DNA of 64,000 bases from an uncultured Candidatus Saccharibacteria bacterium. Its GTDB lineage: Bacteria; Patescibacteriota; Doudnabacteria; UBA920. Both the position numbers and the translations under genes were made by a program. The number at the start of each line of letters is the position of its first letter. Within the stretch, counting starts at the first letter, position 1. Where the stretch lies: positions 127,291 through 191,290 of the forward strand of contig CAZBAS010000002.1 in assembly GCA_964490395.1 (NCBI GenBank), in the 5' to 3' direction. Of the stretch, positions 18,118 through 63,917 are shown piece by piece. The notes beneath the pieces are model-generated. The model saw nothing but the letters and a program-made list of their open reading frames with translations. It did no database searches and was not told the origin of the DNA.

Positions 18118-18798
18118 ATGAAAAAGCTGGCTACTGTATTACTCGTCATACTTATACTACTTGGCGCACTCACCAGTATTTTTGCATTGGGCGCAAGCGG
18201 TGACGAACACAACTGGTTCAATACAACGTGGAGACCTCGCTTTGCGCGCGTGGCGAGCCTACGGAGTCTATTCAATCTCCACGATGATGGCGATGCCAAA
18301 AGCGAATATCTGGGCAAGCAAAAACAATACATTGCCATTATAATAAAACCATATGTTGACCCGTGGTTTAGCGATGGTGTGTGGAAAGAGTTTAGCAAAA
18401 AAGTAACCGAAATTACGGGCAAACAAGTAGAGCTTCTCACAGATACAGATATACCCACGTCTAATGACGCACCTGTATACATATACCTTGAAAGCGTTAA
18501 CGAAGAAAATGCACTCACCCTAGGAAAAACATATAATGAGAATGGCATTATTTTGTACAAGCAGGGTTTGGAAAGCTTCAGTAACGGTACTCCGGAAACA
18601 AAAGAAGCCTACATTATGTCTACGCTCCTTCATGAGTTCGGCCATCAGCTAGGCCTAGTCCACAACGAAGAACCCGGCTGCCTCATGAACAGCCATGCCG
18701 AAACCGGCGGCAATGCCAAGCTCGTGACCAGCGAAGTGATAACAAACTTCTGCGCGGAGGAGATTGAACAAATTTCAAAAATCAAAAGTGAATTATGA
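18118..18798 (+). CDS. Secreted metzincin-type zinc metalloprotease.
   Basis: Signal peptide. HEFGHQLGLVH matches the HExxHxxGxxH zinc-binding consensus, with a downstream CLM Met-turn candidate. Confidence 0.6.
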   Translation: MKKLATVLLVILILLGALTSIFALGASGDEHNWFNTTWRPRFARVASLRSLFNLHDDGDAKSEYLGKQKQYIAIIIKPYVDPWFSDGVWKEFSKKVTEITGKQVELLTDTDIPTSNDAPVYIYLESVNEENALTLGKTYNENGIILYKQGLESFSNGTPETKEAYIMSTLLHEFGHQLGLVHNEEPGCLMNSHAETGGNAKLVTSEVITNFCAEEIEQISKIKSEL

Positions 18799-18880
18799 AG
18801 TAAGAATTATGAAGTATGTATTTAAGAACTCTTAAGGCATTTCTACTACGTAATTCATAATTCCTTATTCATAATTCCGC
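18788..18880. repeat. Word-palindrome, family 5 (GAATTATGAAG arms), overlapping the 3' end of the metzincin gene.
   Basis: GTGAATTATGAAGTAAGAATTATGAAGTATG ... CGTAATTCATAATTCCTTATTCATAATTCC. Confidence 0.7.
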
Positions 18881-18896
18881 GCTCTGCGCTCCCCTC

Positions 18897-19118
18897 ATGG
18901 CTTTTCACGAACACTACAAACGGTCTATCTTAAAAGCGATTACCTATCGCTTTATTATCTTGCTTTCGGATGGACTCATCATATTTCTTATTACCCACCG
19001 CTACGACACTACAGCCAAAGTGATAGTATTTTCCAACATAGCTAGCACTGCATTTTATTTTCTGCACGAGCGTTTTTGGAACAATGTACACTGGGGAAAG
19101 TCGCGTAAGAACGCGTAA
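18897..19118 (+). CDS. DUF2061 family small membrane protein.
   Basis: RSILKAITYRFI...FYFLHERFWNNV matches the DUF2061 signature (KTITWR...HER.WN). Confidence 0.5.
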   Translation: MAFHEHYKRSILKAITYRFIILLSDGLIIFLITHRYDTTAKVIVFSNIASTAFYFLHERFWNNVHWGKSRKNA

Positions 19119-19128
19119 TTCATTTAAA

Positions 19129-19233
19129 CATGTAAGCATGCAAACATTTAAACATTTAAACAGTTAAACAATAACACGGGCGTTGCCCGTGTTATTGTGT
19201 TTACCTTTGTTTATATGTTTGCATGCTTACATG
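19129..19233. terminator. Bidirectional terminator hairpin at 19170-19196 (AATAACACGGGC-GTT-GCCCGTGTTATT), enclosed by a perfect 18-bp inverted repeat.
   Basis: Enclosing IR is CATGTAAGCATGCAAACA (19129-19146) / TGTTTGCATGCTTACATG (19216-19233). Lies between convergent genes. Confidence 0.7.
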
Positions 19234-19248
19234 TTTATATGCGACCTA

Positions 19249-20991: not shown

Positions 20992-21012
20992 AGAATAGTA
21001 TCAAAAATATAA

Positions 21013-21098
21013 TTGACCAAGATTGAGCAAGAATGAACAAGATTACCTACACAATCTTGGTCAATTTTGTACAATCATGGTCAATCTTGGTCAATTCA
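21013..21098. repeat. Array of a 13-bp motif TTGACCAAGATTG in direct and inverted orientation, between ftsL and ftsI.
   Basis: Forward copy at 21013-21025. Reverse-orientation copies CAATCTTGGTCAA at 21052-21064, CAATCATGGTCAA at 21074-21086, and CAATCTTGGTCAATT at 21085-21098, plus degenerate copies. Confidence 0.7.
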
Positions 21099-21570: not shown

Positions 21571-21668
21571 GACCCTCATCTACAAATGAAACACGAATGT
21601 CACGAATAATTAGGCGGATATTTTAATCATTGGGGTCATTCGCGTGCATTCGTATATTTAGAGTCGCA
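21571..21668. repeat. Intergenic element, family 1, copy 1 (ACACGAATGTCACGAATAATTAGG ... ATTCGTATATTTAGAGTCGC).
   Basis: About 80% identical to the copies at 24985 and 26775. Internal inverted CGAATAATT/AATTATTCG-type arms. Confidence 0.75.
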
Positions 21669-22610: not shown

Positions 22611-22746
22611 AAATCCGAAATCCTAATTTCGAAACCCGAAACAAATTCTAAATTCCAAATGATAAAGGTTCAGTCAGTTTTTGAATTTCAGTGTTGAAAT
22701 TTTGATATTGTTTCGAATTTCGAGTTTCGATATTCGAATTTTTCTT
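22611..22746. repeat. Word-palindrome (CGAAAT / ATTTCG arms) between mraZ and rsmH.
   Basis: CCGAAATCCTAATTTCGAAACCCGAAAC ... GTTTCGAATTTCGAGTTTCGATATTCGAATTT. Confidence 0.7.
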
Positions 22747-23959: not shown

Positions 23960-24030
23960 GGATCGAAGACGAGAATGACGAATTATGAATTAAGAATTAA
24001 GAATTAAGAAGCAGAAAGCATAACAAGAAT

Positions 24031-24077
24031 GGCAGAAGGGCATCTTCTGCAGCTGCTGCAGAAGATGCCCTTCTGCC
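24031..24077. repeat. Perfect 47-bp GC-containing palindrome GGCAGAAGGGCATCTTCTGCAGC-T-GCTGCAGAAGATGCCCTTCTGCC.
   Basis: 23-bp arms with no mismatches, between the TrmH start and the stop of the 166-aa gene. Preceded by direct GAATTA(TG/AG)AAT repeats (23947-24010). Confidence 0.85.
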
Positions 24078-24984: not shown

Positions 24985-25092
24985 AGGGCGACACGAATTT
25001 ACAAATCTTCCACACGAATGTCACGAATAATTAGGAGTAGGTCTTAGTTATTCGTATCATTCGGGTGGAATTCGTATATTAGGGTCGCATTA
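24985..25092. repeat. Intergenic element, family 1, copy 2 (GGCGACACGAAT...ATTCGTATATTAGGGTCGC), between the HK and RR genes.
   Basis: Terminal GCGAC/GTCGC inverted ends. Shares ACACGAATGTCACGAATAATTAGG with copy 1. Confidence 0.75.
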
Positions 25093-26774: not shown

Positions 26775-26902
26775 AGGCGACACTAATCTATAAATTACAC
26801 ACGAATGATACGAATAATTAAGAACAACATTTTGCTTATAGAGAAAGGTTAGCTCGAATTATTCGTGTAATTCGGATGGTTCATTCGTAGATTCGGGTCG
26901 CT
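26775..26902. repeat. Intergenic element, family 1, copy 3 (GGCGACACTAAT...CACGAATGATACGAATAATTAAG...CGAATTATTCGTGTAATTCGG...GGGTCGC).
   Basis: Same end structure and core as copies 1 and 2. Internal inverted arms. Confidence 0.75.
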
Positions 26903-27197: not shown

Positions 27198-27206
27198 TAG
27201 TATACC
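27198..27206 (-). promoter_or_regulatory. Extended -10 element TGGTATACT (minus strand) upstream of the 89-aa gene.
   Basis: The 16-mer GTTTTTAGTATACCACA is near-identical to the one at 31051-31067. Confidence 0.4.
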
Positions 27207-27225
27207 ACATGCAAAGCAAAGCTTT

Positions 27226-28667: not shown

Positions 28668-28685
28668 AAGGTGAGGAAATGTCTA

Positions 28686-28776
28686 ATTTCTAATACCTAA
28701 TTCCTAATGGTCCGGACATTCTTATATCTTTCATTAGACATTAGAAATTAGATATTGGTCATTTCCTACATAGTAT
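28686..28776. repeat. Word-palindrome, family 2, copy 2 (loop CTAATGGTCCGGACATTCTT).
   Basis: About 90% identical to the copy at 30411-30500. Confidence 0.8.
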
Positions 28777-30410: not shown

Positions 30411-30500
30411 CAATGTCTAATTTCTAATATCTAATTCCTAATGGTCCGGACATTCTTTTGTCTTTCATTAGACATTAGGAATTAGAAATTGGACATTTCT
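30411..30500. repeat. Word-palindrome, family 2, copy 3.
   Basis: AATGTCTAATTTCTAATATCTAATTCCTAATGGTCCGGACATTCTTTTGTCTTTCATTAGACATTAGGAATTAGAAATTGGACATTTC. Confidence 0.8.
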
Positions 30501-31019: not shown

Positions 31020-31056
31020 ACCTTTTTTGTTTCTTAAGTTATGTAAATTTGTTTTT

Positions 31057-31065
31057 AGTATACCA
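31057..31065 (-). promoter_or_regulatory. Extended -10 element TGGTATACT (minus strand) upstream of the 30504-31019 gene.
   Basis: Same 16-mer as at 27191-27206. Confidence 0.4.
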
Positions 31066-31084
31066 CAAAAATCTTAAAAGCAGG

Positions 31085-31235
31085 AAGATTTTTTAAATTG
31101 CAAGTACCAAATAACAAATCACAAATAAATTCCAATATAAAAATTCAAAATTCTAAAAAAGTATAGTCTTAGTTTGGAATTTGGGTTATTGAATATTGAG
31201 ATTTGTTTGAAATTTGATGCTTGTTATTTGGAATT
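31085..31235. repeat. Word-palindrome singleton (CCAAATAACAAATCACAAATAAATTCCAAT ... GAATTTGGGTTATTGA...TTGTTATTTGG).
   Basis: Inverted arms around the centre AAAAAAGTATAGTCTTAG. Confidence 0.65.
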
Positions 31236-31249
31236 TTCAGCAGTAAGCC

Positions 31250-32278
31250 TTACTTAATACTGAGTATGCTTCGCTTATAACTATCTAAGTTATCCAAGGC
31301 AACTCCAGTCCCCTTTGCAACGCACAAAAGCGGGTCTTCTGCCACAAAACACGGCACACCAATGGCCTGCGCTATGTAACGGTCAAGGTTTCGCAGCTGC
31401 GCTGTACCACCAGTCATAACCATACCTTTGTCTATAATGTCGGCAATAAGCTCTGGAGGTGTATCTTGCAATACCGTTTTAATGGCACGGACCATTTCTT
31501 GCAAGTCTTCGGTGAGTGCATCTACAATTTCATTCGCGCCCACAGTCGTAGTGCGAGGAAGACCGGTAATAATGTCTCGTCCTTTTGTCTCCATTACTTC
31601 CTCTTGAGGAAGGTGTACTGCACTGCCAATAGTAATTTTTATTTCTTCAGCTGTGCGCTCGCCAATGGCAAGACCATGTTTTTTCCGTACATAGTCGGCA
31701 ATGCTCTGGTCAAGCCTATTCCCGGCAACACGGACTGAGGTAGAAGTAACAATACCACCAAGTGAAAGTACGGCAACATCGGTAGTACCGCCACCAATAT
31801 CTATAACTAAGTTTCCTGCAGCGCTACCAATAGGAATACCAGCACCAATAGCTGCAGCAACAGTTTCTTTTATAACAAAGGCTTGGCGCGCACCTGCACT
31901 ACGTGCAGCATCGAGCACTGCGCGACGTTCTGTAGAGGTCACACCCCCGGGCACGCTAATCATTACTTCTGGTCTCAGCAACCTAAACCCAGTAAGCGCT
32001 TTGTTTATAAAATAGCGAAGCATGGCTTCTGTGACGCGATAATCTGCAATAACGCCATCGCGCATGGGCCTGCGTGCCACAATAGTTTCAGGCGTACGGC
32101 CAAGCATATCCTTTGCTTCTTGCCCTACTGCAAGTACACGATTATCATCCAAAGTAATGGCAACAACCGTAGGTTCGTTTATAACAATCCCCCGCTGCGG
32201 CAAAAAAACCAGCGTGTTCGCCGTTCCTAAATCTATACCAATTTTATTAGAAAACCATTGAGACATGAGAAAATGCAA
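31250..32278 (-). CDS. mreB: Rod-shape-determining protein MreB.
   Basis: Actin-fold motifs IGIDLGTANT and DIGGGTTD. 342 aa. Confidence 0.9.
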   Translation of the reverse strand: MHFLMSQWFSNKIGIDLGTANTLVFLPQRGIVINEPTVVAITLDDNRVLAVGQEAKDMLGRTPETIVARRPMRDGVIADYRVTEAMLRYFINKALTGFRLLRPEVMISVPGGVTSTERRAVLDAARSAGARQAFVIKETVAAAIGAGIPIGSAAGNLVIDIGGGTTDVAVLSLGGIVTSTSVRVAGNRLDQSIADYVRKKHGLAIGERTAEEIKITIGSAVHLPQEEVMETKGRDIITGLPRTTTVGANEIVDALTEDLQEMVRAIKTVLQDTPPELIADIIDKGMVMTGGTAQLRNLDRYIAQAIGVPCFVAEDPLLCVAKGTGVALDNLDSYKRSILSIK

Positions 32279-32287
32279 AATTTAGAA

Positions 32288-32495
32288 TGCAGAATTATGA
32301 ATTATGAATCAAAATTGCCAATAGCTTGAAAATTCCCCAAAAATAAGTAGGGCCTTGCTTAATTCATGATTCTTGCTTCATGATTCTATCCTAGTATACC
32401 AAACGCGGGCACATTGTAATAGCCCCATAAAAACGCTATAATATAAGGACTTTCATGCATAATTCTGCATTCTTCATTCTAAATTCTGCATTTAT
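32288..32495. repeat. Word-palindrome, family 5 (TAGAATGCAGAATTATGAATTATGAATC ... GCATAATTCTGCATTCTTCATTCTAAATTCTGCAT).
   Basis: Inverted arms at 32288-32330 and 32455-32495. The ~130-bp central region contains AGTATACCA (32393-32401) and TATAAT (32436-32441) and is the divergent promoter region for mreB and the 32496 gene. Confidence 0.7.
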
Positions 32496-33797: not shown

Positions 33798-33838
33798 AAC
33801 AATGGGCACCCCGATATTACATCGGGGTGCCCATTGTT
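33798..33838. terminator. Bidirectional terminator hairpin AACAATGGGCACCCCGAT-ATTAC-ATCGGGGTGCCCATTGTT.
   Basis: 18-bp perfect stem between convergent genes. Outer stem is shared with the hairpin at 9057. Confidence 0.7.
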
Positions 33839-36438: not shown

Positions 36439-36561
36439 ACAAAATACTTTATCCTGATATACAGATACTATACGAATCTACAGATACCTACGGATAAATG
36501 CCAAAGATGAGGATCAGTAGGTATCTGTAGATTCGTATAAATTCGTAGACCTGGATTATGT
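36439..36561. repeat. Word-palindrome singleton (CGAATCTACAGATACCTAC ... GTAGGTATCTGTAGATTCG).
   Basis: Near-perfect 19-bp inverted core with flanking TACAGATAC/TACGAAT words. Confidence 0.75.
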
Positions 36562-46065: not shown

Positions 46066-46082
46066 TAGAAATGAGATATTAT

Positions 46083-46108
46083 CCGCCCGAGGCGGACCGG
46101 CCTTGGGC
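46083..46108. repeat. GC-rich hairpin CCGCCCGAGG-CGGACCGG-CCTTGGGCGG, embedded in AT-rich flanks related to family 2.
   Basis: The flanks TAGAAATGAGATATT / AAATTAGATATTGGAAATT resemble family-2 words. Confidence 0.6.
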
Positions 46109-46115
46109 GGGGAAA

Positions 46116-47954
46116 TTAGATATTGGAAATTTTCTTCTCTTCTCCTGCCAAAAACCGCTGGAGCTTGTCTTTATGTTTCTGATAGAAGAATGCAACGGAA
46201 AGCAGAATTACCCCAAGCAAGATAAATGACACTACTCGGTAGCCAAGTTCGAGGGTCTGGACATCGTAGAGAAATACTTTTATGACTGTTATTGCAAACA
46301 AGACCACGGCAGACTTACGGAGAATATGGAAGCCCTTTAGGCCGCCCACTATGGCCAGAATGCCAGCATACACCATCCACCAGACACTAAGTAACAAGTT
46401 TCTAGTATTGCTATTATCAAACCCTGCGAATTGCGTTATCACCTCTTGCGAACCTGCAAGCCATACAACCGTAGCCACGGCAGCGCGGGCTATAGCAGGG
46501 ACTTGCTGTTCGTCAGCTGCTACTGAATGCGCTTCATATGTATACGCAGCTGCGAGTAGCACAGCGCTCACCAGTAGCTCCATACCAAACCGGATGTTGA
46601 ACAAGAACAAATAGCCATCGGTAGTGTAGTCAGAAAGTACTACTTTAAGTGTAGTAAGGAGAAGTAAAATAAGCCCCCACACCCGCAAGTCTTTTCGCTT
46701 GACCAAAAAGCCAATGCCTATCCCCAGCGCAGATAGGGCAAGTAAATATATATTTTCTGTTGCACCAGCAAACTGCCACAAGACTGCAGCAACTAAAAAC
46801 TTCGAACCAACAAATGAGAGCGGATAGTTAATGCGAACATATTCAAGTCTATCCATTATTGCATAGGACAGGAACGTCACCACTCCAAGGAGTAACATCA
46901 CAGGACCTAAGTAGTCTCTAAAATGGCCATAGAGAAGGCTGCTTGTGACGGCAAAAATACTCACGCCAAAGAGAGAGTAAAAAACACCAAGATGAAGATC
47001 TGCGTCCGCAGTAAGTTGCTTTGACTCATGCAGCTTACGGAAAATGGTGGCGGTAATAATCCCCACCAAGAGGTAGTTAAACAGAATAAATGCCATGCTT
47101 ATTCCAGTGTTTTCTGGCCCGGAATACGCTGCAAACCAGCCACCAAAACAAATTGCCGTACCAAAGAACGCAACAAACAAGAGCTCTACCCAATATTGCT
47201 TAAGCAACATGAGTAACACGCCAACGTTTACTATGGTTAAATACACAAACAAACCAACTTGTTTGTCTTCGCCAGAGCTAACCAGGAGCGGAGAAATATA
47301 ACCGCCAGCAACAGCGAAGAGGCCTAGCGCTTTTGAGTTGTATCTGTAGGACAGTGCAATGCCAAGGACGGTTATAACTATAGTGCACAAAAACGCTATA
47401 GGCTGGTCTAGCTTATGATAATACTGATATGCCGCAAAAATGGTGAAATATAATACAGCCAAACCGCTCCCGGTCAGCACGTGCGAGTATTTCGCATATT
47501 TCTGACTCCACAAATCGCCCAGCGCTACGAGCAAGCCGCCAACTGCGAGGCCCAGAATAATGCGCATCCATTCCGTTATCCAACCCTGATCAATGGCGTA
47601 CTTGAAGAAGAATCCTATACCAAGTAACAGCGCCAAAGCACCCACACCGCCAACCCACTGTGCTGCACTTATATCGCTTACCGGGCGATGCAGACCTTCA
47701 GGAGGTACAGGAGGAGTAAGCGGTGCAGTAGGAACTGGCGGTGCCACCTGCGCACTGCTCACGACTTGATCGGTTCGTCCTTGCATGACCGCAGATACAG
47801 CATCTGCCACAGGAGGAGTACTACTCCCCGAAACAGGTTGCGGAGCGGGCGCTGCGTTATTACGCATACGTGCTTCAAGCCGCGTCAACCTATTCGAAAC
47901 ACTTTGAAGATATAGGAACAGACCAACAATTGCTACAAAAAGTATAAATGACAT
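46116..47954 (-). CDS. Large polytopic membrane protein (N-terminal coiled coil/low complexity, then ~18 TM helices; DUF2339-like).
   Basis: Hydrophobicity pattern. Inserted between the two transketolase subunit genes. Confidence 0.45.
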   Translation of the reverse strand: MSFILFVAIVGLFLYLQSVSNRLTRLEARMRNNAAPAPQPVSGSSTPPVADAVSAVMQGRTDQVVSSAQVAPPVPTAPLTPPVPPEGLHRPVSDISAAQWVGGVGALALLLGIGFFFKYAIDQGWITEWMRIILGLAVGGLLVALGDLWSQKYAKYSHVLTGSGLAVLYFTIFAAYQYYHKLDQPIAFLCTIVITVLGIALSYRYNSKALGLFAVAGGYISPLLVSSGEDKQVGLFVYLTIVNVGVLLMLLKQYWVELLFVAFFGTAICFGGWFAAYSGPENTGISMAFILFNYLLVGIITATIFRKLHESKQLTADADLHLGVFYSLFGVSIFAVTSSLLYGHFRDYLGPVMLLLGVVTFLSYAIMDRLEYVRINYPLSFVGSKFLVAAVLWQFAGATENIYLLALSALGIGIGFLVKRKDLRVWGLILLLLTTLKVVLSDYTTDGYLFLFNIRFGMELLVSAVLLAAAYTYEAHSVAADEQQVPAIARAAVATVVWLAGSQEVITQFAGFDNSNTRNLLLSVWWMVYAGILAIVGGLKGFHILRKSAVVLFAITVIKVFLYDVQTLELGYRVVSFILLGVILLSVAFFYQKHKDKLQRFLAGEEKKISNI

Positions 47955-48338
47955 AGATTAATTGACAAAAATGACAAAAATTAAAAAAGTGACAAAATTA
48001 CTTAAGGCGCTGATTTTTAATAGTAGAATTTTTGGATGCAATCATAATAGCAGTTAATTCGCCAGATTCTTGTAGCAATTCTTTTAGAAGTTCATTTTTA
48101 ACCAAACCCGAATCGGACAGTAGTTCTAACCAAAGCTGTGTTTCATCACACTCTTCAATTTCGGTACCCATTTTTGAGATAAAATCTTTTCTCGATTTAC
48201 ACCTACACGCAGCTCTGTAGTTAGCGTCATGATTGTACCCAAACGAATGAGTTGGCTATTTGCAAGAATTTTTACCTGTCCGCCATAGCCTTGCGGCGGA
48301 TCATTTTTATTTATTTTTGTTCACTTTTGTCATTACCG
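47955..48338. repeat. Word-palindrome singleton flanking a 384-bp region that holds a truncated four-helix-bundle ORF.
   Basis: Arms ATTGACAAAAATGACAAAAATTAAAAAAGTGACAAAATTA (47957-47996) vs ATTTTTATTTATTTTTGTTCACTTTTGTCATTACC (48301-48335). Confidence 0.65.
48002..48171 (-). pseudogene. Fragment matching the C-terminal half of a four-helix-bundle (IVS-type) protein; truncated gene or remnant.
   Basis: 56-aa ORF MGTEIEECDETQLWLELLSDSGLVKNELLKELLQESGELTAIMIASKNSTIKNQRLK. It matches the conserved C-terminal E..W.....G....E....L......KML..L..S block. No N-terminal half is present. Confidence 0.35.
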
Positions 48339-49226
48339 TTATTCGTGTTCGCTCCTAATCTGACCACGCAATGTTCGGAGCTCTTCTAGAGCGATCCTCC
48401 CCTGTTCTTTCTTGGGTGGTTCACCGGGCACGTCCAAGCCCCCTGGCGGGGCGCCGTGCCATTTATAATCCCCTTCCATAAAGTCTACGCCCTTACCAGG
48501 AATGGTGTGAGCAATTATTACCGTTGGTTTTTCGTAAATAGCCTTTGCTTCGTTACACGCATCAATTATTTGCTGCATGTTATGCCCGTCTACTTCTAAC
48601 ACATGCCAGTTAAACGCTTCGTATTTGGCGCGGAGACTCTCCAGGGGCATTACGTCCTCGGTATATCCGTCTATTTGGATGTTGTTGCGGTCTATAATGG
48701 CAGTAATGTTATGAAGTTTCCGCGCCCCGGCGAACATAACTGCTTCCCACACCTGCCCTTCATTTTGCTCGCCATCAGACATAACCAAGTACACCCGCTG
48801 CTTTGCGTGGTTCATATTCAGAGCCAAAGCCATACCCACTGCCTGCGATGACCCCTGCGCAAGTGGCCCGCTCGATGTTTCCAGGCCAGGCAGTGCAAGG
48901 TTGTGCGGATGCCCATGCAGTCTTGTACCTAGTTTACGTAAGGTAAGCAGCTCTTCTTTAGGAAAGTATCCAGCCTCGCCCAAAGCCGCATACAGCACCG
49001 GACATGTGTGGCCGCAGGAAAGCACAAGCCTATCACGCCCCTCCCACGTAGGATTGTGGGGGTCGTGTGCGAGTACTTTGAAATAGAGCGCAGCAAAAAT
49101 ATCTGCCATACCAAGCGGCCCCGCGCTATGCCCAGATTTGGCAGCGAGCAACATCTGAATAATATCCTGCCGAATATCGTTCGCCTTATATTTCAGCTCA
49201 GTGATAGATACATTAAAAGGATTCAT
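48339..49226 (-). CDS. tkt: Transketolase, N-terminal (TPP-binding) subunit.
   Basis: GHSAGPLGMADI, GxxGSGP..G and HxxxLxGH motifs. Start taken at MNPFNV (ATG at 49226). Confidence 0.85.
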   Translation of the reverse strand: MNPFNVSITELKYKANDIRQDIIQMLLAAKSGHSAGPLGMADIFAALYFKVLAHDPHNPTWEGRDRLVLSCGHTCPVLYAALGEAGYFPKEELLTLRKLGTRLHGHPHNLALPGLETSSGPLAQGSSQAVGMALALNMNHAKQRVYLVMSDGEQNEGQVWEAVMFAGARKLHNITAIIDRNNIQIDGYTEDVMPLESLRAKYEAFNWHVLEVDGHNMQQIIDACNEAKAIYEKPTVIIAHTIPGKGVDFMEGDYKWHGAPPGGLDVPGEPPKKEQGRIALEELRTLRGQIRSEHE

Positions 49227-49237
49227 ATGATAGGTAG

Positions 49238-49492
49238 TTATAACCAAATTGTAAGCAACCTCACAATAGAAAGCACTGCCACAATAGCCCACACAACATC
49301 AAGAATTTCTCCGGAGTAGGCCCGCTTATAACGGTAGTAAGCAATGTTGCCCAGAGACCCTATTAAATTTAGCCCCTGATATGCAAGCCCTTCAGCACGA
49401 AGCCAGCCAAAGGAGACGCTCAGATACGCACCAAGAATGCATACCATACCGCCATAGCCGCACAATTCGTATAGTAATCGTTTTTGTTTCAA
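49238..49492 (-). CDS. Small membrane protein (3 TM), hypothetical.
   Basis: 84-aa ORF with three hydrophobic helices. Fits exactly between the tkt N-subunit start and the next gene. Confidence 0.3.
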   Translation of the reverse strand: MKQKRLLYELCGYGGMVCILGAYLSVSFGWLRAEGLAYQGLNLIGSLGNIAYYRYKRAYSGEILDVVWAIVAVLSIVRLLTIWL

Positions 49493-50998: not shown

Positions 50999-51082
50999 TA
51001 GCTTTTTAGCTTTTTAGCTTTTTAGCTTTTTAGCTTTAGGGCGTTACCTAGAAAGCTAAGAAGCTACAAGCTAACAAGCTAT
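50999..51082. repeat. Word-palindrome, family 3 (four tandem AGCTTTTT words, then CTAGAAAGCTAAGAAGCTACAAGCTAACAAGCT).
   Basis: Inverted AGCTAA-word arms around the loop GCGTTA. Confidence 0.75.
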
Positions 51083-51519
51083 TCTAACTTACTAATCTTC
51101 TTTATTCTTCGTATGTGCCTCGCATCTTTTGACCACGGTGTTTCTAGCCAGGTTTTTACAATGCTTTGCGCTTGTTTTGTTGTCATATAGTCGCTAGGCA
51201 AACACAAAATATTGGTATGATCGTCGTTTCGGCTTGCTTTTGCTTCTTTGGTATTCCATACGAGACCAGCTCGTACGCCTTTAAATTTATTCGCAGCAAT
51301 GCATACACCCTGTCCGCTCCGGCAAATGAGTATGCCAAAATCGGTATCTGGGTTCTTAGATACTTTAGCCGCTACTTTCTTGGCGTAATCCGGGTAGTCA
51401 TCGTCGGGCACCAAAGTCTCTGGCCCCAGGTCGGATACGCGACCAGCCTCGGCGAGTAGCCAAGCTTTGAGTTGTTCTTTGAGAGCAAAGCCCCCGTGAT
51501 CGGATGCGATATATAACAT
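51079..51519 (-). CDS. rpiB: Ribose-5-phosphate isomerase B.
   Basis: SDHGG and ICRSGQG(V)CIAANK motifs. 146 aa. Confidence 0.85.
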   Translation of the reverse strand: MLYIASDHGGFALKEQLKAWLLAEAGRVSDLGPETLVPDDDYPDYAKKVAAKVSKNPDTDFGILICRSGQGVCIAANKFKGVRAGLVWNTKEAKASRNDDHTNILCLPSDYMTTKQAQSIVKTWLETPWSKDARHIRRIKKISKLE

Positions 51520-51526
51520 AGCTGCT

Positions 51527-51593
51527 AGGTTCTAGCTACTAGGTTCTAGCTGAGGGCTTATTCTAGAAGCTGTTAGCTAGTAACTAGAAGCTT
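51527..51593. repeat. Word-palindrome, family 3 variant (CTAGC/GCTAG words).
   Basis: AGCTGCTAGGTTCTAGCTACTAGGTTCTAGCTGAG ... CTAGAAGCTGTTAGCTAGTAACTAGAAGCTT. Confidence 0.65.
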
Positions 51594-52273
51594 AAATTAA
51601 TCATTGCATTAAAGTCTTTAGGCAAAAGGCTGGCGCCGCCAACCAGCAAGCCATCTATATTCGGTTGAGTTAGAAACTGCCCTGCGTTAGTAGCATTGGC
51701 GCTGCCGCCATATAAAATTTTAGCAGGTTTAAATTTGGTTCGAATAAATATGCTTATTTTTTCTGCATGGTCAGGCGTGGCTGGGCTGCCCGCACCTATG
51801 GCCCACACGGGCTCGTACGCAACCACAACTTTCGATGAGTCAACCCCTTTGAGCGCGGACTGGAGCTGGACCCGCAGAACATCTGCTACTTCTAATTCAT
51901 CCTGCTTCACCGTTGTACCATGGCCAACGCACAGTACTGGCGTTATGCCAACAGACAAAAGTGATTCTACTTTCTTATGTATCCCCTCTTCTGTTTCTCC
52001 GGTGTTGCGCCGTTCGCTATGGCCCACAAGGCAATATTTAACTTTTAAGCTTTTAAGCGTCAGGGGTGAAACCTGGCCAGTATGAGCGCCTTTATTTTCC
52101 CAAAAACAATCTTGTGCCCCGAGCTTCGGGTAGTGTATAGACGCTAAAAAAGCTGCAGGAGGACAAATAACCGCCTCATGAGCAGGTTTTGGGTCTATCT
52201 TTTTTGCCAAACTGACGGCTTCTTTTACAGTAACAGGGTTCAGTTTCCAATTGCCGATAATAAGTTTTTTCAT
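51584..52273 (-). CDS. tpiA: Triosephosphate isomerase.
   Basis: NWK, catalytic VGHSERR and C-terminal GGAS motifs. 229 aa. Confidence 0.9.
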   Translation of the reverse strand: MKKLIIGNWKLNPVTVKEAVSLAKKIDPKPAHEAVICPPAAFLASIHYPKLGAQDCFWENKGAHTGQVSPLTLKSLKVKYCLVGHSERRNTGETEEGIHKKVESLLSVGITPVLCVGHGTTVKQDELEVADVLRVQLQSALKGVDSSKVVVAYEPVWAIGAGSPATPDHAEKISIFIRTKFKPAKILYGGSANATNAGQFLTQPNIDGLLVGGASLLPKDFNAMINLSF

Positions 52274-53824: not shown

Positions 53825-53908
53825 AATTAGTTCATAAAGTTTGTAAAGTTCATAAAGTTTGTAAAGTATTTACTTTATAAACTTTCTACTTTATGAACTT
53901 GATAGCTT
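53825..53908. repeat. Word-palindrome singleton (CATAAAGTTTGTAAAG x2 ... CTTTATAAACTTTCTACTTTATGAAC).
   Basis: Direct 16-mer duplication followed by its imperfect reverse complement. Confidence 0.7.
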
Positions 53909-55322: not shown

Positions 55323-56948
55323 CTACTCAATGAGCTCACCACCAAACACCTGCAAGGCAACTGACAGTGTCTCACCCACAGAAGCATCGGCTTCTTCCCG
55401 CTCAACAAACTGTGCAATCACCCGCACAGGGCCACCAAGAGCAGCTGACACCGTTTGGCTAATAAGCATTTTATTTTTAGTAGACTCCAGCTGCTCCTTG
55501 TGAAAAAGATATTTCACCCCTATGGATATGCAGTTCCCCTCTATAGAACAGATGGGAGAATTCCTCACCAGAGTACCGAGAGGGCCGTTTACGTCTTTAA
55601 GTTTATTGCATACTTCGGGCCACAATTCTCGAACCTGTTGTTCGTCCAGCGTAAAACCTTCAGCCGGAACAGAGGCGTTAGGAGCCGCAACTTGGGCAGT
55701 TTGCGTCGTGCTCGCCTTAGGCAATGTACTTGCCTGAGGCGGTACTGACGTGGCTACTTGTCTTGGCGCCACATCTTCACCAGGGACAGAAGACATGCTT
55801 TTTGCTGCGCGGAGCACAGGCTCTGGCTCTACTCGCTTATCTACCACTGTTCCTGTTATCTGTTTTGATGGTTGTTGAATTTTATACAGTGCTTCTAGGC
55901 TAGCAATGAGTAACGGCAAAGAGCCTTCGGGACTCCCTGGGATTTCTTTATATGATCGCAAAAATTGTCTGAGTAAAAACAAAAGATCTTGCTCCATAAA
56001 CCACCCACTCGCCTGGACAAGCTCAGTCGGAAGCCCGGCTTTCTGCGGAGCCAAACGGGCCACAAGCAACTCCCGAAGGAGCTCTAGTACGTCTCTATTT
56101 ACTGCTTGCATATCAAAATATATTGCAGTAAGCGACTCAAAAAAATGTGGTAACTCTTCTGCAGATCCTGAGTGTATAATGCGCAATAGTTCAGTTAGCG
56201 ATTCTCGGCTGGTTTTGCCCAAGAGCCGTTCTACATCGGACAGACTCGGGTTTGGCCCCAAAGACAGCACTTGGTCTAACAACGTAAGCGCGTCGCGCAT
56301 ACCACCATCGGCTGCGTGCGCTATAAACGCCAGGAATTCTTCTGGAACAGTGCGAGATTCTTGCGCGGCCACCGATGTTAGCTGCGCAACCAATTCTGTT
56401 TCGGAAAACTTGTTAAAAGTGAACACCTGGGCTCGCGAATTTATGGTAGCCGGGACCTTACCCACTTCTGTTGTGGCTAACACAAACACGGTACGACTAG
56501 GCGGCTCTTCAAGCGTTTTAAGCAGCGCATTCCACGCACCCTTAGAGAGCATGTGCGCCTCATCTATAATGTACATTTTATACTTACCGGAAGTAGGCTG
56601 GAACCGAACGGTGTCTATGAGTGACCGCACGTTATCTACGCCAGTATTCGAGGCAGCATCCACCTCCAGCATATCCAAAAAACTCCCTGCATCAATTTCC
56701 CGGCAGACACGACAGTCAAGACAGGCTTCACCATTCTGGACGTTCAGACAGTTCAGCGCGCGGGCTAACACACGGGCCAATGTAGTTTTACCAAGCCCCC
56801 TACCGCCGCAAAACAAATATGCATGCGCCGGATTATCGGCCACTACAGCGTTCTGCAAAGTACGCACGATATGGGCCTGTCCAATGACGTCGGAAAAGCG
56901 TTTTGGTCTATAGGTTCGGTATAAAGCGGGCATACGTAAAGTGCGCAA
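55323..56948 (-). CDS. dnaX: DNA polymerase III subunit gamma/tau.
   Basis: Walker A GGRGLGKTT, Zn-module CxxC...CxxC, SRC/sensor motifs, and a Pro/Gln/Ala-rich linker. 541 aa. Confidence 0.9.
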   Translation of the reverse strand: MRTLRMPALYRTYRPKRFSDVIGQAHIVRTLQNAVVADNPAHAYLFCGGRGLGKTTLARVLARALNCLNVQNGEACLDCRVCREIDAGSFLDMLEVDAASNTGVDNVRSLIDTVRFQPTSGKYKMYIIDEAHMLSKGAWNALLKTLEEPPSRTVFVLATTEVGKVPATINSRAQVFTFNKFSETELVAQLTSVAAQESRTVPEEFLAFIAHAADGGMRDALTLLDQVLSLGPNPSLSDVERLLGKTSRESLTELLRIIHSGSAEELPHFFESLTAIYFDMQAVNRDVLELLRELLVARLAPQKAGLPTELVQASGWFMEQDLLFLLRQFLRSYKEIPGSPEGSLPLLIASLEALYKIQQPSKQITGTVVDKRVEPEPVLRAAKSMSSVPGEDVAPRQVATSVPPQASTLPKASTTQTAQVAAPNASVPAEGFTLDEQQVRELWPEVCNKLKDVNGPLGTLVRNSPICSIEGNCISIGVKYLFHKEQLESTKNKMLISQTVSAALGGPVRVIAQFVEREEADASVGETLSVALQVFGGELIE

Positions 56949-57010
56949 TTATGAAGTAAGTCGCCTCCTCGGCGGCCCGCCGAAGAGGCGGGAATTATGA
57001 ATTATGCGCC
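56949..57010. repeat. Family-5 words (AATTATGAAGTAAG / GGAATTATGAATTATG) flanking a GC-rich hairpin CGCCTCCTCGGCGG-CC-CCGCCGAAGAGGCG (56962-56990).
   Basis: 14-bp GC stem with one mismatch, inside AT-rich family-5 flanks. The partner arm CATAATTCTTACTTCATAC lies at 57127-57146. Confidence 0.65.
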
Positions 57011-57159
57011 CAGAAAGGTGGCATGAGCGCAAATTCTGCCTATGGATTTACATTATAGCATGGACCTTTGAAGAAGATTTTCTTTACTAAAATACCCTGC
57101 TTTTACAGGGTATTTATTCATGACTCATAATTCTTACTTCATACTTCTGGTCAGCCATT

Positions 57160-57888: not shown

Positions 57889-57902
57889 AGAAATATAATA
57901 AA

Positions 57903-57991
57903 ATGCCTAATGTCTAATTCTTAATTTCTAATGCGAAGCCTAAAAACATTTGACTCTTGCATTAGAAATTGGATATTAGAAATTAGACATT
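57903..57991. repeat. Word-palindrome, family 2, copy 5.
   Basis: TGCCTAATGTCTAATTCTTAATTTCTAATG...CATTAGAAATTGGATATTAGAAATTAGACATTC. Confidence 0.75.
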
Positions 57992-58646: not shown

Positions 58647-58734
58647 ATCTTTTTGTTTATGTTTCTAATCTTATGAAACTTAAGAATAGTATATCATAGC
58701 CTCGCGCAATTGCAAACACAAAAGGATCAGAATC

Positions 58735-58815
58735 AAGAATTACGAATTATGAATTAAGTAAACGCCGTCCAACCCGTCGCCACTGTTAGGAGCATAATTC
58801 ATAATTCTTGATTCA
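58735..58815. repeat. Word-palindrome, family 5 (GAATCAAGAATTACGAATTATGAATTAAG ... CATAATTCATAATTCTTGATTCATAATTC).
   Basis: Inverted GAATTATGAAT-word arms. Confidence 0.75.
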
Positions 58816-58824
58816 TAATTCTTC

Positions 58825-61888: not shown

Positions 61889-61904
61889 ATTGGCTCTCGT
61901 CGCA

Positions 61905-61933
61905 TAAAAAAACACGAGGCACTGCCTCGTGTT
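61905..61933 (-). terminator. Rho-independent terminator downstream of secY (hairpin ACACGAGGCAGTGCCTCGTGT + T8 on the minus strand).
   Basis: Stem 61913-61933 followed by TTTTTTTT (61905-61912) on the minus strand. Confidence 0.75.
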
Positions 61934-61962
61934 TGGTATACAACTCCACCGTTTACTACAAC

Positions 61963-63243
61963 CTATACTTCGTCGTAGTCATGAACGCTGAGCTGCGCTT
62001 CAATTTGTTTTATAGTCTCTATTACCACTGCAACAACAATGAGGATGCTAGTACCACCAAGAGTTAACGCCTGGGTTCCAGTAAATTTCTGAAGCAAGAA
62101 TGGCATGATGGCTATGAGACCCAAGAACACAGCGCCGGGTAACGTAATGCGGTTCAGTACTTTGTACAAATAGTCTGCTGTTTGCTTGCCTGGACGGAGC
62201 CCTGGAACAAAGCCACCGTTTTTCTGTACATTTTCAGCCACTTCGTCTGGATTAAACACCACCGCGGTGTAGAAATAGGTAAACACCACAACCAATACAA
62301 AGTAGGCAATACCGTAATACATGTTCTGAGAATTAAACAGGCTTATTACTTTTCCTGCATAATTGGCAACCACAGCAGATTTCGCATTTACAAAGAATTG
62401 AGCAATGAGCGCCGGGAACAAAAGCATGGAAATGGCAAAGATGATTGGAATAACCCCAGCCTGGTTTAACCGTAAAGGCAAGTGAGTATTTACACCACCA
62501 TATTGCTTATCGCCCCTTACGCGCCGAGCGTAGGAAATAGGTATATTTCGCTGGGCTTCGGTAATGAGAATAATACCAGCTACCACCAAAAGCCCTATAG
62601 CTATGTACCCCAAGAACACGGGCAAACGGGAAGGATCGTAGAAACTTATAACCGACTTCAAGCTAAATGGTAACCGGGCAATAATACCGGCAAATATTAC
62701 CAAACTTACACCGTTACCAATGCCGTACTCAGTAATAATTTCCCCTATCCACATAATTATCATAGTTCCTGCAGTCACGGAAAGTAGGGTCAAGAACCAC
62801 TGATACGACGTAAAGCTTGGCAATAATTGGCCACCAGCCTGGCTTTGCAAAAGGCGAATAGTACCAAAACCTTGCAAGAGCGCGAGCGGAATAGTCAGGT
62901 AGCGCATGTACATGTTCATCTTGAGCCTACCCTGCTCCCCGCCTTCTTTTTGCATTTCACCAAGGGATGGAATAATCACGGCCAGTAACTGAATTATAAT
63001 GGACGCCGTAATATAAGGACCAACACCGAGCATGGCCAAAGAGAAATTGGTAAGACCACCACCAGAGAAAAGATCGAGCAGGCCTAGAAACTGGTTTTGA
63101 TCGAGCGCGCTCTTAAGAGCAGAAGCATCTACCCCAGGAATAGGTATGTGCGCAAAGACACGTGTAACTAAAAGCAGGCCGATAATCCAGAGGATCCGTA
63201 CCCGCAAATCTTTCGTTTTCCAAATGAGAGAAATTTTATTCAT
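61963..63243 (-). CDS. secY: Preprotein translocase subunit SecY.
   Basis: 10-TM SecY with conserved blocks (GIGNGVSLVIF, plug/hinge regions). 426 aa. Confidence 0.9.
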   Translation of the reverse strand: MNKISLIWKTKDLRVRILWIIGLLLVTRVFAHIPIPGVDASALKSALDQNQFLGLLDLFSGGGLTNFSLAMLGVGPYITASIIIQLLAVIIPSLGEMQKEGGEQGRLKMNMYMRYLTIPLALLQGFGTIRLLQSQAGGQLLPSFTSYQWFLTLLSVTAGTMIIMWIGEIITEYGIGNGVSLVIFAGIIARLPFSLKSVISFYDPSRLPVFLGYIAIGLLVVAGIILITEAQRNIPISYARRVRGDKQYGGVNTHLPLRLNQAGVIPIIFAISMLLFPALIAQFFVNAKSAVVANYAGKVISLFNSQNMYYGIAYFVLVVVFTYFYTAVVFNPDEVAENVQKNGGFVPGLRPGKQTADYLYKVLNRITLPGAVFLGLIAIMPFLLQKFTGTQALTLGGTSILIVVAVVIETIKQIEAQLSVHDYDEV

Positions 63244-63377
63244 TGTAGTAATCGCGAATATACAAATTATATACCAAAATGTAGTAATCGCGAATATACA
63301 AATCTAGGGCAATATACGAATCTCAGAATTGGCCGTGATTTGTATATTTGTTTCTATTCGTATATTTGCGAATGCTA
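63244..63377. repeat. Word-palindrome singleton (GTAGTAATCGCGAATATACAAAT x2 direct ... ATTTGTATATTTGTTTCTATTCGTATATTTGCGAATGCTACTAT).
   Basis: Two direct 23-mers followed by their imperfect reverse complement. Confidence 0.7.
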
Positions 63378-63818
63378 CTATTTTACGCTGCCGCCAGCTG
63401 CTTTGATTGCCTCTGCAACAGATTTAGAGGTAGCTACTTTTATATCAAATTTTGCGCTCACCTTAGCTATTCCAACAATTTTAACTTTTGCTACAGATGC
63501 AGCAACCAGTTTTTTTGAACGGAGTACAGAAACGGTCACTGTTCCACCATCAGGAAATGCCTTTACAAGCTTGTCTAAACGGATTGCAGTAGCTTCTTCA
63601 CGAGGGCTTCTAAAACCTCGGTTCTTTGGCAATTGGCGCACCAATGGCTGGCGGCCACCTTCAAACGCTACTGGCATCTTGGAGTGACCAGTTCGAGCGG
63701 TTTGACCCTTACCACCACGAGTGGAATACGTACCTTTACCACTACCAAGACCACGACCAACAACTTTTTTGCGGTGAGTAGACTTCGGATGTTTACGGAT
63801 TGTGTGAAGTTGTAACAT
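63378..63818 (-). CDS. rplO: 50S ribosomal protein L15.
   Basis: N-terminus MLQLHTIRKHPKS..RKKVVGRGLGSGKGTYSTRGGKGQ is typical of L15. 146 aa. Confidence 0.85.
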   Translation of the reverse strand: MLQLHTIRKHPKSTHRKKVVGRGLGSGKGTYSTRGGKGQTARTGHSKMPVAFEGGRQPLVRQLPKNRGFRSPREEATAIRLDKLVKAFPDGGTVTVSVLRSKKLVAASVAKVKIVGIAKVSAKFDIKVATSKSVAEAIKAAGGSVK

Positions 63819-63826
63819 ATATACGC

Positions 63827-63915
63827 TGAAATTTCTAATTTCTAATTTCTAATTTCTAATGAGGTATCTAATCATGAGCTTACTAATTAGATATTAGAAA
63901 TTAGATATTGGGCAT
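63827..63915. repeat. Word-palindrome, family 2, copy 6 (four tandem TTTCTAAT words ... TTAGATATTAGAAATTAGATATTGGGCATTC).
   Basis: Inverted TCTAAT-word arms between rpsE and rplO. Confidence 0.75.
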
Positions 63916-63917
63916 TC

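Follow-up and report, generated by a model that had tools for sequence, protein, structure and literature searches.

Tandem-word hairpins at the gene junctions of a Patescibacteria chromosome and their likeness to small hairpin-bracketed genes

Why should the gaps between the genes of a bacterial chromosome be occupied, one after another, by long AT-rich palindromes built from a short repeated word? The question is raised by a 64-kb window of one genome (positions 127,291 to 191,290 of contig CAZBAS010000002.1; "the window" denotes this whole stretch of DNA). The host is a chromosome of the Candidate Phyla Radiation (CPR, Patescibacteria), and the nearest named genomes are metagenome-assembled genomes labelled Ca. 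Doudnabacteria or Ca. Saccharibacteria. An initial annotation had reported such palindromes in about 30 intergenic gaps, sorted them into families and offered three roles: RNase III-type processing sites, terminator or insulator hairpins, and non-autonomous elements of the kind of MITEs (miniature inverted-repeat transposable elements) or repetitive extragenic palindromes (REPs). We analyzed the window with our own gene model based on open reading frames (ORFs), inferred promoters from sequence, and compared the locus with syntenic relatives labelled L005, L006 and L100-L105. The last of the three roles is the best supported, since the palindromes share arms and loops, have gene-bearing relatives and are gained or replaced at junctions. 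We consider it somewhat better than an even chance that they are gene-less copies of small, selfish, hairpin-bracketed elements that resemble both MITEs and the intervening sequences (IVSs) of rRNA. The initial annotation had missed two links that bear on this: to small genes in the hairpin loops, and to the short tandemly repeated repetitive (STRR) heptamers of cyanobacteria.

Tandem Repeats Finder returned about 60 short arrays with periods of 7, 8, 9 or 10 nt (14-20 being doublets) and 2-6 copies, nearly all of them intergenic and mostly in complementary pairs. Likewise, every one of the window's longest inverted repeats was intergenic. The best ungapped inverted repeat was determined in each gap and set against 30 shuffles; right of 18.8 kb, some 24 gaps beat every one of them, with arms of 18-48 nt that were 73-100% complementary and had a word periodicity of 0.6-0.9. 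Furthermore, 16 hairpins were folded as RNA in the sense strand against 200 dinucleotide shuffles each. In 15 of them the z score ranged from -4.2 to -9.3 and none of the 200 shuffles folded as well; hairpin 51515-51595 reached a z of -2.1, and 4 of its 200 dinucleotide shuffles folded at least equally well. The gaps are AT-rich (21-38% GC), as are the stems, in a window of 42-48% GC throughout. The region from 18.8 to 64 kb has about 35 gaps that measure 39 nt or more; 25 of them (71%) contain tandem-word elements, 27 in all, and at least 8 unrelated words coexist in these 45 kb. The left 18 kb hold a single tandem-word hairpin, at 15089-15201. The elements right of 18.8 kb are listed below, with the folding z score where one is quoted.

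18790-18877, hairpin of GAATTAT/GAAGTAA words (family 5), starting at the stop of the plus-strand gene 18118-18798; a 73-aa ORF, 18897-19118, follows
19121-19241, hairpin of CATTTAAA words in a convergent gap, with the GC terminator 19168-19198 nested in its loop
21011-21096, hairpin of the 10-nt word ATTGACCAAG at the ftsL/ftsI junction (z -6.0)
21591-21645, weak family-1 copy with CACGAAT words at the mraW/ftsL junction
22611-22741, hairpin of AAATCCG / TTTCGAA words that fills the mraZ/mraW junction (z -4.6)
23972-24010, single array (AGAATTA)x5.6 with no complementary partner, beside the GC-rich perfect palindrome 24031-24077
24988-25090, family-1 hairpin with GGCGACAC...GGGTCGC ends and CACGAAT words (z -6.2)
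26778-26900, family-1 hairpin with a longer loop
27229-27307, family-2 hairpin of TCTAATT / AATTAGA words; the gap reads stop, hairpin, -10-like TGTGGTATACT, start
28674-28767, family-2 hairpin downstream of a canonical terminator and promoter, thus in the 5' untranslated region of a dinB-like gene
30412-30497, family-2 hairpin, loop about 88% identical to that of the 28674 copy (z -6.2)
31095-31236, hairpin of CAAATAA words; the gap reads stop, hairpin, promoter-like motif, start
32271-32493, three arrays in the divergent mreB/PEGA gap; the outer arms, 32271-32313 and 32451-32493, abut both starts, and a middle arm lies at 32366-32390
34267-34713, minus strand, gene-bearing element; AGCT-word arms 34267-34305 and 34672-34713 around an intact PF05635 / TIGR02436 four-helix-bundle gene, 34306-34671 (E 6e-34)
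36469-36539, hairpin with 27-nt arms 96% complementary, TACGAATCTACAGATACC, at the gpmI/recJ junction (z -9.3)
38177-38255, gene-less AGCT-word hairpin at the eno/gpmI junction, where L006 has a PF05635 element with different arms
43431-43507, gene-less AGCT-word hairpin at the pfkB/fba junction, where L005 and L006 have the same word family
47962-48335, minus strand, gene-bearing element; TGACAAAAA arms 47962-48000 and 48302-48335 around a degraded PF05635 gene (about 47998-48300) in the tktN/DUF2339 gap, also in L006
50998-51081, gene-less AGCT-word hairpin at the rpiB/rpe junction, one arm perfect, (TAGCTTTT)x4.9, the other heterogeneous
51520-51592, AGCT/CTAG-word hairpin that fills the tpiA/rpiB junction from stop to ATG and reaches into the last tpiA codons
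52283-52366, gene-less AGCT-word hairpin at the galT/tpiA junction
53829-53904, hairpin of TAAAGTTTG words at the htrA/ruvX junction (z -7.5)
56947-57147, split arms of GAATTATGAAGTAAG words; between them lie a terminator, promoter-like TGCTATAAT and a GC-rich stem
57902-57991, family-2 hairpin (z -8.8)
58730-58822, hairpin of GAATTAT words (family 5), followed by a promoter-like motif
63281-63378, hairpin of CGAATATAC words at the rplO/secY junction of the spc operon (z -5.5)
63830-63916, family-2-like hairpin upstream of rplO, one arm perfect, (AATTTCT)x4.4

Thus, the palindromes of tandem words are real, and the initial figure of about 30 gaps was only slightly generous. Their grouping into families also stands: family 2 can be aligned over arms and loop, and family 1 keeps its ends. 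The identity of 80-90% within families had been put too high; it averages 70-76% and peaks at about 88% in the pair 28670/30405, loop included. Several entries of the earlier family list have to be revised. Position 46066, assigned to family 2, is a GC-rich stem, and the supposed family-5 palindrome at 23947 is the lone array at 23972. The hairpins counted separately at 34267 and 34683 are the two arms of one gene-bracketing element, and the singleton palindrome at 47955 likewise consists of the arms of one such element. The list had also lacked the hairpins at 19121-19241 and 21011-21096, and the copy at 15089-15201 lies outside the range that it covered.

The relationships of the hairpins became apparent from those that enclose a gene. 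In three first cases, two in the window (34306-34671 and about 47998-48300) and one at the eno/gpmI junction of L006 (12842-13237), the arms bracket a gene of family PF05635, called '23S rRNA intervening-sequence protein' and also four-helix-bundle, TIGR02436, S23p or Avd-like. All 5 PF05635 genes of the window, L005 (two genes) and L006 carry tandem-word inverted arms, and two further copies, in L103 and L104, are bracketed alike. The degraded copy at 47998-48300 has a counterpart at the same place in L006 (1900-2290), about 77% identical in nucleotides and likewise frameshifted, though by other lesions; either the reading frame has been lost independently, or the sequence persists for some reason unrelated to the protein. 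A second passenger was found in the relatives fetched via homologues of triosephosphate isomerase. This is a PF13366 PD-(D/E)XK-like 'GxxExxY' gene (TIGR04256), located in the galT/tpiA gap of L101, L103, L104 and L105 and in the gap/pgk gap of L100. The four genes at galT/tpiA are enclosed by (TACGAAN)n/(NTTCGTA)n arms that reach up to the ATG and include the stop; these arms score 22-26, where shuffles reach at most 9. Arms of different words around the fifth gene, in L100, score 12.0 against 9.0.

Gene-less hairpins carry the same arms as these gene-bearing elements. The 5' arm of the AGCT-word PF05635 element of the window matches the gene-less hairpins at 43.4, 38.2 and 52.3 kb at 35/41, 37/44 and 25/26 positions, respectively, and its 3' arm matches them at 34/43, 31/39 and 35/43. 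Furthermore, the inner boundary AGCTTGTTAGGAA is common to this intact element and the gene-less AGCT hairpins. The same was observed for PF13366: gene-less TACGAAN hairpins lie 1-3 genes from the PF13366 element in L101, L104 and L105, and the gene-less TACGAA hairpins of L101 and L105 are 78-88% identical to its arms. Within one genome, gene-less and gene-bearing arms are thus 78-96% identical, the kind of likeness by which MITEs are recognized, and gene-less copies far outnumber gene-bearing ones.

Orthologous junctions, whose comparison had been proposed as a check in the initial annotation, turned out to be empty in some relatives (2-16 nt) and occupied by different families in others. 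The htrA/ruvX junction measures 2, 4, 6 and 11 nt in four relatives; the window has an 84-nt TAAAGTTTG hairpin there, and L105 has one of 104 nt built from TACGAA words. Its length jumps from 2-11 to 84-104 nt without intermediates. At galT/tpiA, L100 and L102 have 16 nt, the window has an AGCT hairpin and four relatives have the PF13366 element, and at tpiA/rpiB each of the six genomes compared carries a different word array. The first arm word often coincides with the final codons of the upstream gene: galT ends in AGCTAG in the window and in AGCTAA or AGCTAG at the empty sites of L100 and L102, and tpiA ends in AGCTTCTAG, which is found again in the arm. This is compatible with microhomology at the insertion point. 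In L100, the tpiA/rpiB junction (10691-11017) is a 327-nt nested composite: a CAAATNN hairpin lies inside outer GAGTAAC/TAGTTGC words, with (CTTAGCC)n and (CTCTANC)n arrays after them, suggesting that one element can insert into another. A different type of intergenic element of this lineage is present at the gap/pgk junction of L006 (9361-10000), where a GC-rich unit, CCTTTCTCTCCTCCT...AGGAGGAG, occurs together with ACCCTTCCGTC.CCGCTACGCGGA.CCACCTTCCCTTAG in 2-3 copies. Four Logan contigs, which share the PGK of the window exactly and match it at 99.8-100%, showed no differences in the three hairpins that they span and are uninformative on micro-evolution.

The association of PF05635 genes with such arms is not confined to this lineage. 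A scan of metagenome contigs yielded 80 loci that encode PF05635 homologues of 44-69% identity at 30-68% GC; 72 of them had 110 nt on both flanks. With a threshold of at least 13 for flank complementarity, 38 of the 72 PF05635 genes passed (53%), compared to 7 of 215 other ORFs of the same loci (3%; Fisher p = 2e-20), and 2 of the 7 passing control ORFs were PF05635 four-helix-bundle paralogs. The period was 7 in 27 of the 38 arm-bearing loci, 8 in 10 and 9 in one, and the median distance of the arms was 18 nt to the start and 12 nt to the stop. Moreover, the arms had a uniform polarity, independent of the strand read: AG-containing words, with the consensus AG[T/G][G/T]NNY, formed the 5' arm in 34/38 loci. 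An Rfam scan of the 40 arm-bearing PF05635 loci found two tRNAs only, and none of these loci lay in an rRNA gene. Co-orientation with close neighbours (83%) was near the usual bacterial background and hence uninformative.

A tblastn search of plasmids with the window PF05635 protein gave 27 records, of which 24 were cyanobacterial, mostly heterocystous. Among eight copies inspected, seven had some array and four had inverted heptamer arms, namely (TCAGGAG)n and (TCAGAAG)n, as well as (TAGGGAG)n/(TCCCTAC)n where the gene separates nrdB from nrdA and (ACAGGTG)n where it separates cas6 from cas4. Some PF05635 genes, in Pseudanabaena and Nostoc PCC 7120, had direct or one-sided arrays, and the number of words differed between two Nostoc PCC 7120 plasmid copies. 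A four-helix-bundle gene stands between cas6 and cas4 both in Pseudanabaena galeata pPg_01 (45862-47018; L098) and in Anabaena sp. 90 pANA02 (L099); the Pseudanabaena copy has direct, not inverted, arrays, with (AGCTAAA)x15 upstream and (AGCCAAA)n downstream. The same search with the PF13366 protein gave 4 matches, too few for a test of the type applied to PF05635.

Our favoured explanation would run as follows. A full element would consist of a 5' arm of 3-6 tandem words of 7-10 nt, a loop, and a 3' arm of complementary words, the loop being either short or filled exactly by one small gene. Copies would be added at gene junctions inside operons, and their arms would then grow or shrink by replication slippage, which would spare the stem since every word pairs with every complementary word. 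Insertion would be tolerated like that of an IVS in an rRNA helix: the closed stem would loop out of the mRNA, with the stop before it and the start after it remaining adjacent at its base. The transcribed stem, which with 25-45 bp and periodic internal loops of 1-2 nt is of sufficient length for an RNase III substrate, would most likely be cut by this enzyme, as is the Coxiella IVS; by this analogy such cleavage is plausible, and it would make stem-capped monocistrons from operon transcripts. Candidate routes of copying are microhomology or template switching, or repair started by the PD-(D/E)XK protein, and the four-helix-bundle protein is a candidate nucleic-acid binder. The anatomy, the kinship of gene-bearing and gene-less copies, their presence or absence at orthologous junctions and the cross-phylum association with PF05635 were observed directly in the sequences; the mechanism of copying, the RNase III cleavage and the neutrality of the elements to their host are inferred.

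Several observations weigh against this explanation. Comparison of filled with empty junctions revealed no target-site duplication, and no recognizable transposase was found, PF05635 and PF13366 not being known transposases. Within the window there is no rnc gene, families 2 and 5 lack a gene-bearing partner, and such a partner exists only for the AGCT family and the singleton TGACAAAAA. The word polarity of the window's gene-less hairpins is mixed (8 AG-first, 7 CT-first, 3 ties), and they may therefore not all be one class. Near the metagenome PF05635 genes we counted 6 extra same-word arrays in 145 kb, about 6-fold over a cross-locus control; with an enrichment of only this size, most genomes do not amplify gene-less copies. 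Sense-strand mismatches comprised 15 G.U and 18 A.C, and with no G.U excess there is no sign that selection acts on pairing in RNA and not in DNA. Finally, an AGCT/AGCA-type hairpin is kept at pfkB/fba in the window, L005 and L006, whose PGK proteins are about 71-76% identical, and selection could explain this retention too.

Selection is central to the reading in which the hairpins are operon punctuation maintained by the host, serving as RNase III sites, 3'-end stabilisers or translational-coupling devices, with small genes landing in the safe loops. We regard this as unlikely. In its favour, as in that of our own explanation, the hairpins are placed inside operons, right between the stop and the start. 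Some 13 gaps are spanned by their hairpin from stop to ATG, and its 3' arm ends 0-19 nt before the ATG with no U-tract. Hairpins are located within the dcw, spc and glycolytic gene clusters, for instance at the junctions of mraZ, mraW, ftsL and ftsI and between rplO and secY. The mraZ-mraW-ftsL-ftsI, rplO-secY and glycolysis clusters are co-transcribed in model bacteria, and this placement implies that most hairpins are intercistronic parts of polycistronic transcripts and not terminators. Host selection would also explain why one word family was kept at pfkB/fba in three genomes and why mismatches cluster at the word spacers while the word cores stay paired (60/86 in the two top phases versus 51.9 expected, p = 0.0014). 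Differences between genomes in the orthologous PF13366 arms are similarly confined to the unpaired 2-nt spacers. Both patterns fit either conserved pairing or conserved word identity. A precedent comes from the STRR hairpins between the co-transcribed genes hupS and hupL, whose function is unknown and whose proposed roles concern transcript stability, translational coupling and termination (PMC2670836). On the other hand, relatives cope with 2-16-nt junctions at the same sites, the families at one junction vary between genomes, and hairpins stand before, after or around promoters and terminators, with no constant position. Moreover, the arms of the L006 PF05635 element at eno/gpmI are unrelated to the hairpin of the window there, which argues against insertion of the gene into a pre-existing hairpin.

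Alternatively, the palindromes could have arisen locally, slippage having amplified a word at the end of a gene and intrastrand template switching having copied it to the other arm, with neither mobility nor selection. The arrays themselves lend this some appeal, as a perfect array often faces a heterogeneous partner: 50999-51037 is 100% identical over 4.9 copies and 63830-63860 over 4.4, and the L006 pfkB/fba hairpin likewise has one perfect arm and a heterogeneous partner. Such pairs imply recent slippage in one arm. As all words of an arm are alike, slippage shifts the register and leaves the ability to pair. The gene ends that supply the first word (AGCTAG in galT, AGCTTCTAG in tpiA) and the variable number of words, among Coxiella strains and between the two Nostoc plasmid copies, point the same way. 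However, separate gaps share non-repetitive parts, such as the loops in family 2, the ends GGCGACAC...GGGTCGC in family 1 and the boundary AGCTTGTTAGGAA, and arms are common to gene-bearing and gene-less copies. The leap of junctions from 2-11 to 84-104 nt also speaks against it, and the AG-first polarity of 34/38 loci around PF05635 genes across phyla is not to be expected from local accidents; we judge a purely local origin improbable.

As terminators or insulators, a further role initially proposed, the hairpins would belong to an organism that does not use U-tracts. Consistent with this, four gaps (27.2, 31.1, 58.7 and 63.3 kb) have the order stop, hairpin, -10-like TGnTATACT, start; the convergent gap 18799-19248 holds a hairpin of its own for each gene; and gaps tend to contain either a tandem-word hairpin or a canonical terminator. 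Yet canonical terminators with a GC stem and T-tract exist in this genome, at 61934-61910, 39582-39563, 28829-28808, 33838-33798 and 19168-19198. The initial annotation was right that ordinary terminators occur alongside the palindromes, although the one it placed at 13935 was not reproduced by our terminator scan. The scan picked sites other than the hairpins, which have AT-rich stems, no T-run and an ATG directly after them. A 3' arm that ends 0-19 nt from the ATG leaves no room for a promoter, and the approximately 13 hairpins of this kind stand in conserved operons. Furthermore, the order at 28.7 kb is terminator, promoter, hairpin, start; the arms at 57.0 kb enclose both terminator and promoter; and the left 18 kb, with genes that look monocistronic, have almost no hairpins. 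A terminating or insulating role is therefore poorly supported, and we rate it as quite improbable; that the hairpins form a distinct layer is borne out by their composition, the missing T-tract and their position, in all of which they differ from the few canonical terminators. On the minus strand a motif, (T)GTGGTATACTA(AAAA) or TGCTATAAT, recurs 25-50 nt upstream of starts (near 27199-27209, 31056-31066, 28770-28775, the 55180s, the 58690s and the 61870s). It resembles an extended -10 promoter that lacks a clear -35. A generic sigma-70 scan of the window gave sites no more frequent than in shuffles.

If the palindrome were secondary, the word arrays could be DNA or RNA binding sites for a word-reading protein, either the pentameric PF05635 protein or a nucleoid protein. 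Conserved word cores with free spacers, the fixed polarity of words relative to the element centre, and the direct or one-sided arrays at some PF05635 genes of Pseudanabaena and Nostoc PCC 7120 would suit such sites. So would the size of the arrays, which have about 4-5 words, as S23p/Avd proteins are homopentamers (PMC4990558). However, at least 8 unrelated words in 45 kb stand against two PF05635 copies in the window, one of them degraded, and the complementarity of the arms is the most constant feature of all; this reading appears slightly harder still to uphold than that of terminators. 

Mobilization of REP elements or REP-derived hairpins (REPINs) by the IS200-like Y1 transposase of the window (5924-6523), resembling the REP-associated tyrosine transposases (RAYTs), is scarcely credible: the gene is present and itself palindrome-flanked, but its flanks are a different, GC-rich self-palindrome, AAAAGGGT(C/G)ACCCTTTT, whose four window copies all stand beside the gene, and the tandem-word hairpins share nothing with it and have no conserved REP-type head. 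The Y1 gene is a 199-aa plus-strand ORF (PF01797 Y1_Tnp, E 5e-10) within a unit at 5846-6573, with two palindrome copies on each side (5856-5868 and 5909-5921; 6533-6545 and 6555-6567). This locus looks like a RAYT/IS200-type unit unrelated to the tandem-word hairpins. Other GC-rich perfect or near-perfect palindromes lie at 1074-1122, 3041-3089, 9055-9095, 24031-24077 and 33798-33838. Among them, CGTTGCAATGGTCATCTTTG occurs twice with identical 20-nt arms, a AATGGGCACC-type stem is found at 9055 and 33798, and the 24031 stem resembles one of L100 (TGATGGGCATCTTCTCACA); they may be a second, REP-like or terminator-like family. An integron attC/cassette array or a phage was rejected, as the flanking genes are syntenic housekeeping genes and no integrase was present among the ORFs scanned; no attC core sites were evident among arms of different families, the R''/R' consensus itself not having been searched for. 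CRISPR was rejected as well, there being no regular spacers.

The minus strand carries nearly all genes between 19249 and 63818, and these belong to the core housekeeping set. They comprise the dcw cluster mraZ-mraW-ftsL-ftsI, genes for a histidine kinase, a response regulator, a DinB-like polymerase and an RNase H-like protein, mreB and recJ; for glycolysis and the pentose phosphate pathway, gpmI, eno, pgk, gap, fba, pfkB, a split transketolase, rpe, rpiB and tpiA; and galT, ruvX, htrA, dnaX, a TraG-like ATPase, secY and rplO. The split transketolase consists of tktN (48339-49292) and tktC (45088-46065) with a 612-aa DUF2339 membrane-protein gene between them, an order kept in all syntenic relatives. 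Tandem-word hairpins are nearly restricted to these minus-strand housekeeping operons; a plus-strand block at 5.4-18.8 kb contains accessory-type genes (glyoxalases, NUDIX, MGMT, UDG, hydrolases), ordinary terminators and one hairpin. The sign of the GC skew is constant over the window, so that the blocks 1-18700 and 18800-64000 differ in orientation relative to the skew. Upstream of start codons at 19-64 kb a Shine-Dalgarno-like sequence is almost absent, and several ATGs, for example those at 51519 and 50996, come immediately after the last word of a hairpin arm. At gathering threshold, Rfam found one tRNA only in the whole window, with no rRNA and no known RNA family.

What would it mean if the palindromes are gene-less copies of hairpin-bracketed elements? 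Knowledge of STRR heptamers dates from 1990 and that of rRNA intervening sequences from about the same time, and an origin and a mechanism are lacking for both. PF05635 and PF13366 are large 'hypothetical' families, and the data connect both with STRRs and IVSs; the association of PF05635 with arms holds from 30 to 68% GC and in the very cyanobacteria in which STRRs were defined. Thus, a widespread class of bacterial repeats gains a testable origin, and for two orphan protein families a function is suggested that can be put to the test. In CPR bacteria, most junctions of core operons for division, ribosomal proteins and glycolysis would then carry long double-stranded RNA stems, which bears on the processing and translation of polycistronic mRNA in small genomes that apparently have little Shine-Dalgarno signal. 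In practice, the stems likely break short-read assemblies and confuse gene callers; several arms overlap start or stop codons.

We finally compared the elements with known systems. The literature found contained no CPR description of such hairpins and, Coxiella excepted, no general link of PF05635 or PF13366 to heptamers; subscription journals were mostly uncovered, so prior art is possible. Mazel et al. are said to have defined in 1990 the canonical STRR units CCCCAGT, TTGGTCA and CAACAGT; the words of the window are different, and TTGGTCA is contained only in the 21011-21096 hairpin. Intergenic heptamers, including inverted pairs near ORF ends, have been described in Xanthomonas (GGGAATC) and Nostoc (PMC4692102), and in Beggiatoaceae the word is TAACTGA (PMC4679880). 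The elements of the window are like the STRR, Xanthomonas and Beggiatoaceae heptamers in having words of about 7 nt arranged head to tail, in lying between genes near ORF ends and in often forming inverted, hairpin-forming pairs; in cyanobacteria, moreover, heptamers flank PF05635 genes. They differ from STRRs in that the host is, by its genes and relatives, a CPR bacterium and not a cyanobacterium, in their AT-rich words of 7-10 nt, and in an occupancy of about 70% of gaps, which is far denser. In addition, the literature found on STRRs makes no tie to PF05635 or PF13366, nor to gene-bearing versus gene-less copies.

A second known system is formed by the IVSs of 23S rRNA genes, present in Coxiella, Leptospira, Salmonella and others. 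The IVS of Coxiella 23S rRNA has been called selfish and has an S23p ORF in the loop of a 28-bp stem of terminal inverted repeats; the ORF is preceded by 2-3 tandem heptamers, GACAGAT, whose number varies by strain, and RNase III cuts the stem at the start of the first repeat (PMC4990558). PF05635 ORFs are also present in rRNA insertions of CPR bacteria (10.1101/2024.02.27.582315), and PF05635 is homologous to Avd of diversity-generating retroelements (PMC10053308). Common to IVSs and our elements are the long stem of terminal inverted repeats and a loop that is short or contains an S23p/PF05635 ORF. The elements of the window differ in lying between protein-coding genes, with no rRNA in the window or at the 40 arm-bearing loci, in having PF13366 as a second passenger family and a gene-less majority, and in that their cleavage by RNase III is presumed by analogy.

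With REP/REPIN-RAYT systems and MITEs the elements share short intergenic palindrome families, a few gene-bearing 'master' copies inversely flanked, many gene-less copies, and presence or absence between relatives. In contrast to the fixed 20-40-bp palindrome of REPs and REPINs, they are word arrays of variable length without GTAG/CGTC or any other shared head. Their loops hold no Y1 transposase and their junctions no target-site duplication, unlike REPs and MITEs, and their passengers are a four-helix-bundle and a PD-(D/E)XK-like protein. The intergenic RNase III sites of phage T7 are imperfect intercistronic stems with internal loops in long polycistronic transcripts, cleavage of which leaves stem-capped mRNAs. 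These sites differ in being unique sequences rather than word arrays and in being immobile.

Tentatively, these likenesses may reflect a single origin. In this broader proposal, which we put forward as a possibility and rate below even, STRRs, the heptamers of Xanthomonas and Beggiatoa, short and long rRNA IVSs and the CPR junction hairpins would be one cross-phylum selfish class, its full form being a word-array stem around a PF05635 or PF13366 gene, with PF05635 and PF13366 as maintenance or mobility factors; in CPR bacteria, gene-less derivatives would punctuate most operons and set mRNA processing. PF05635 would then be an Avd-like nucleic-acid binder and PF13366 a PD-(D/E)XK nuclease acting on hairpin or cruciform structures. 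Altogether, the elements are of an already known kind, that of STRR-type heptamer hairpins and IVS elements. Several features appear to be new: the setting at CPR operon junctions, occupied to about 70%; a second family of passenger genes; gene-bearing copies paired with gene-less ones; and an association that holds across phyla and has a uniform polarity.

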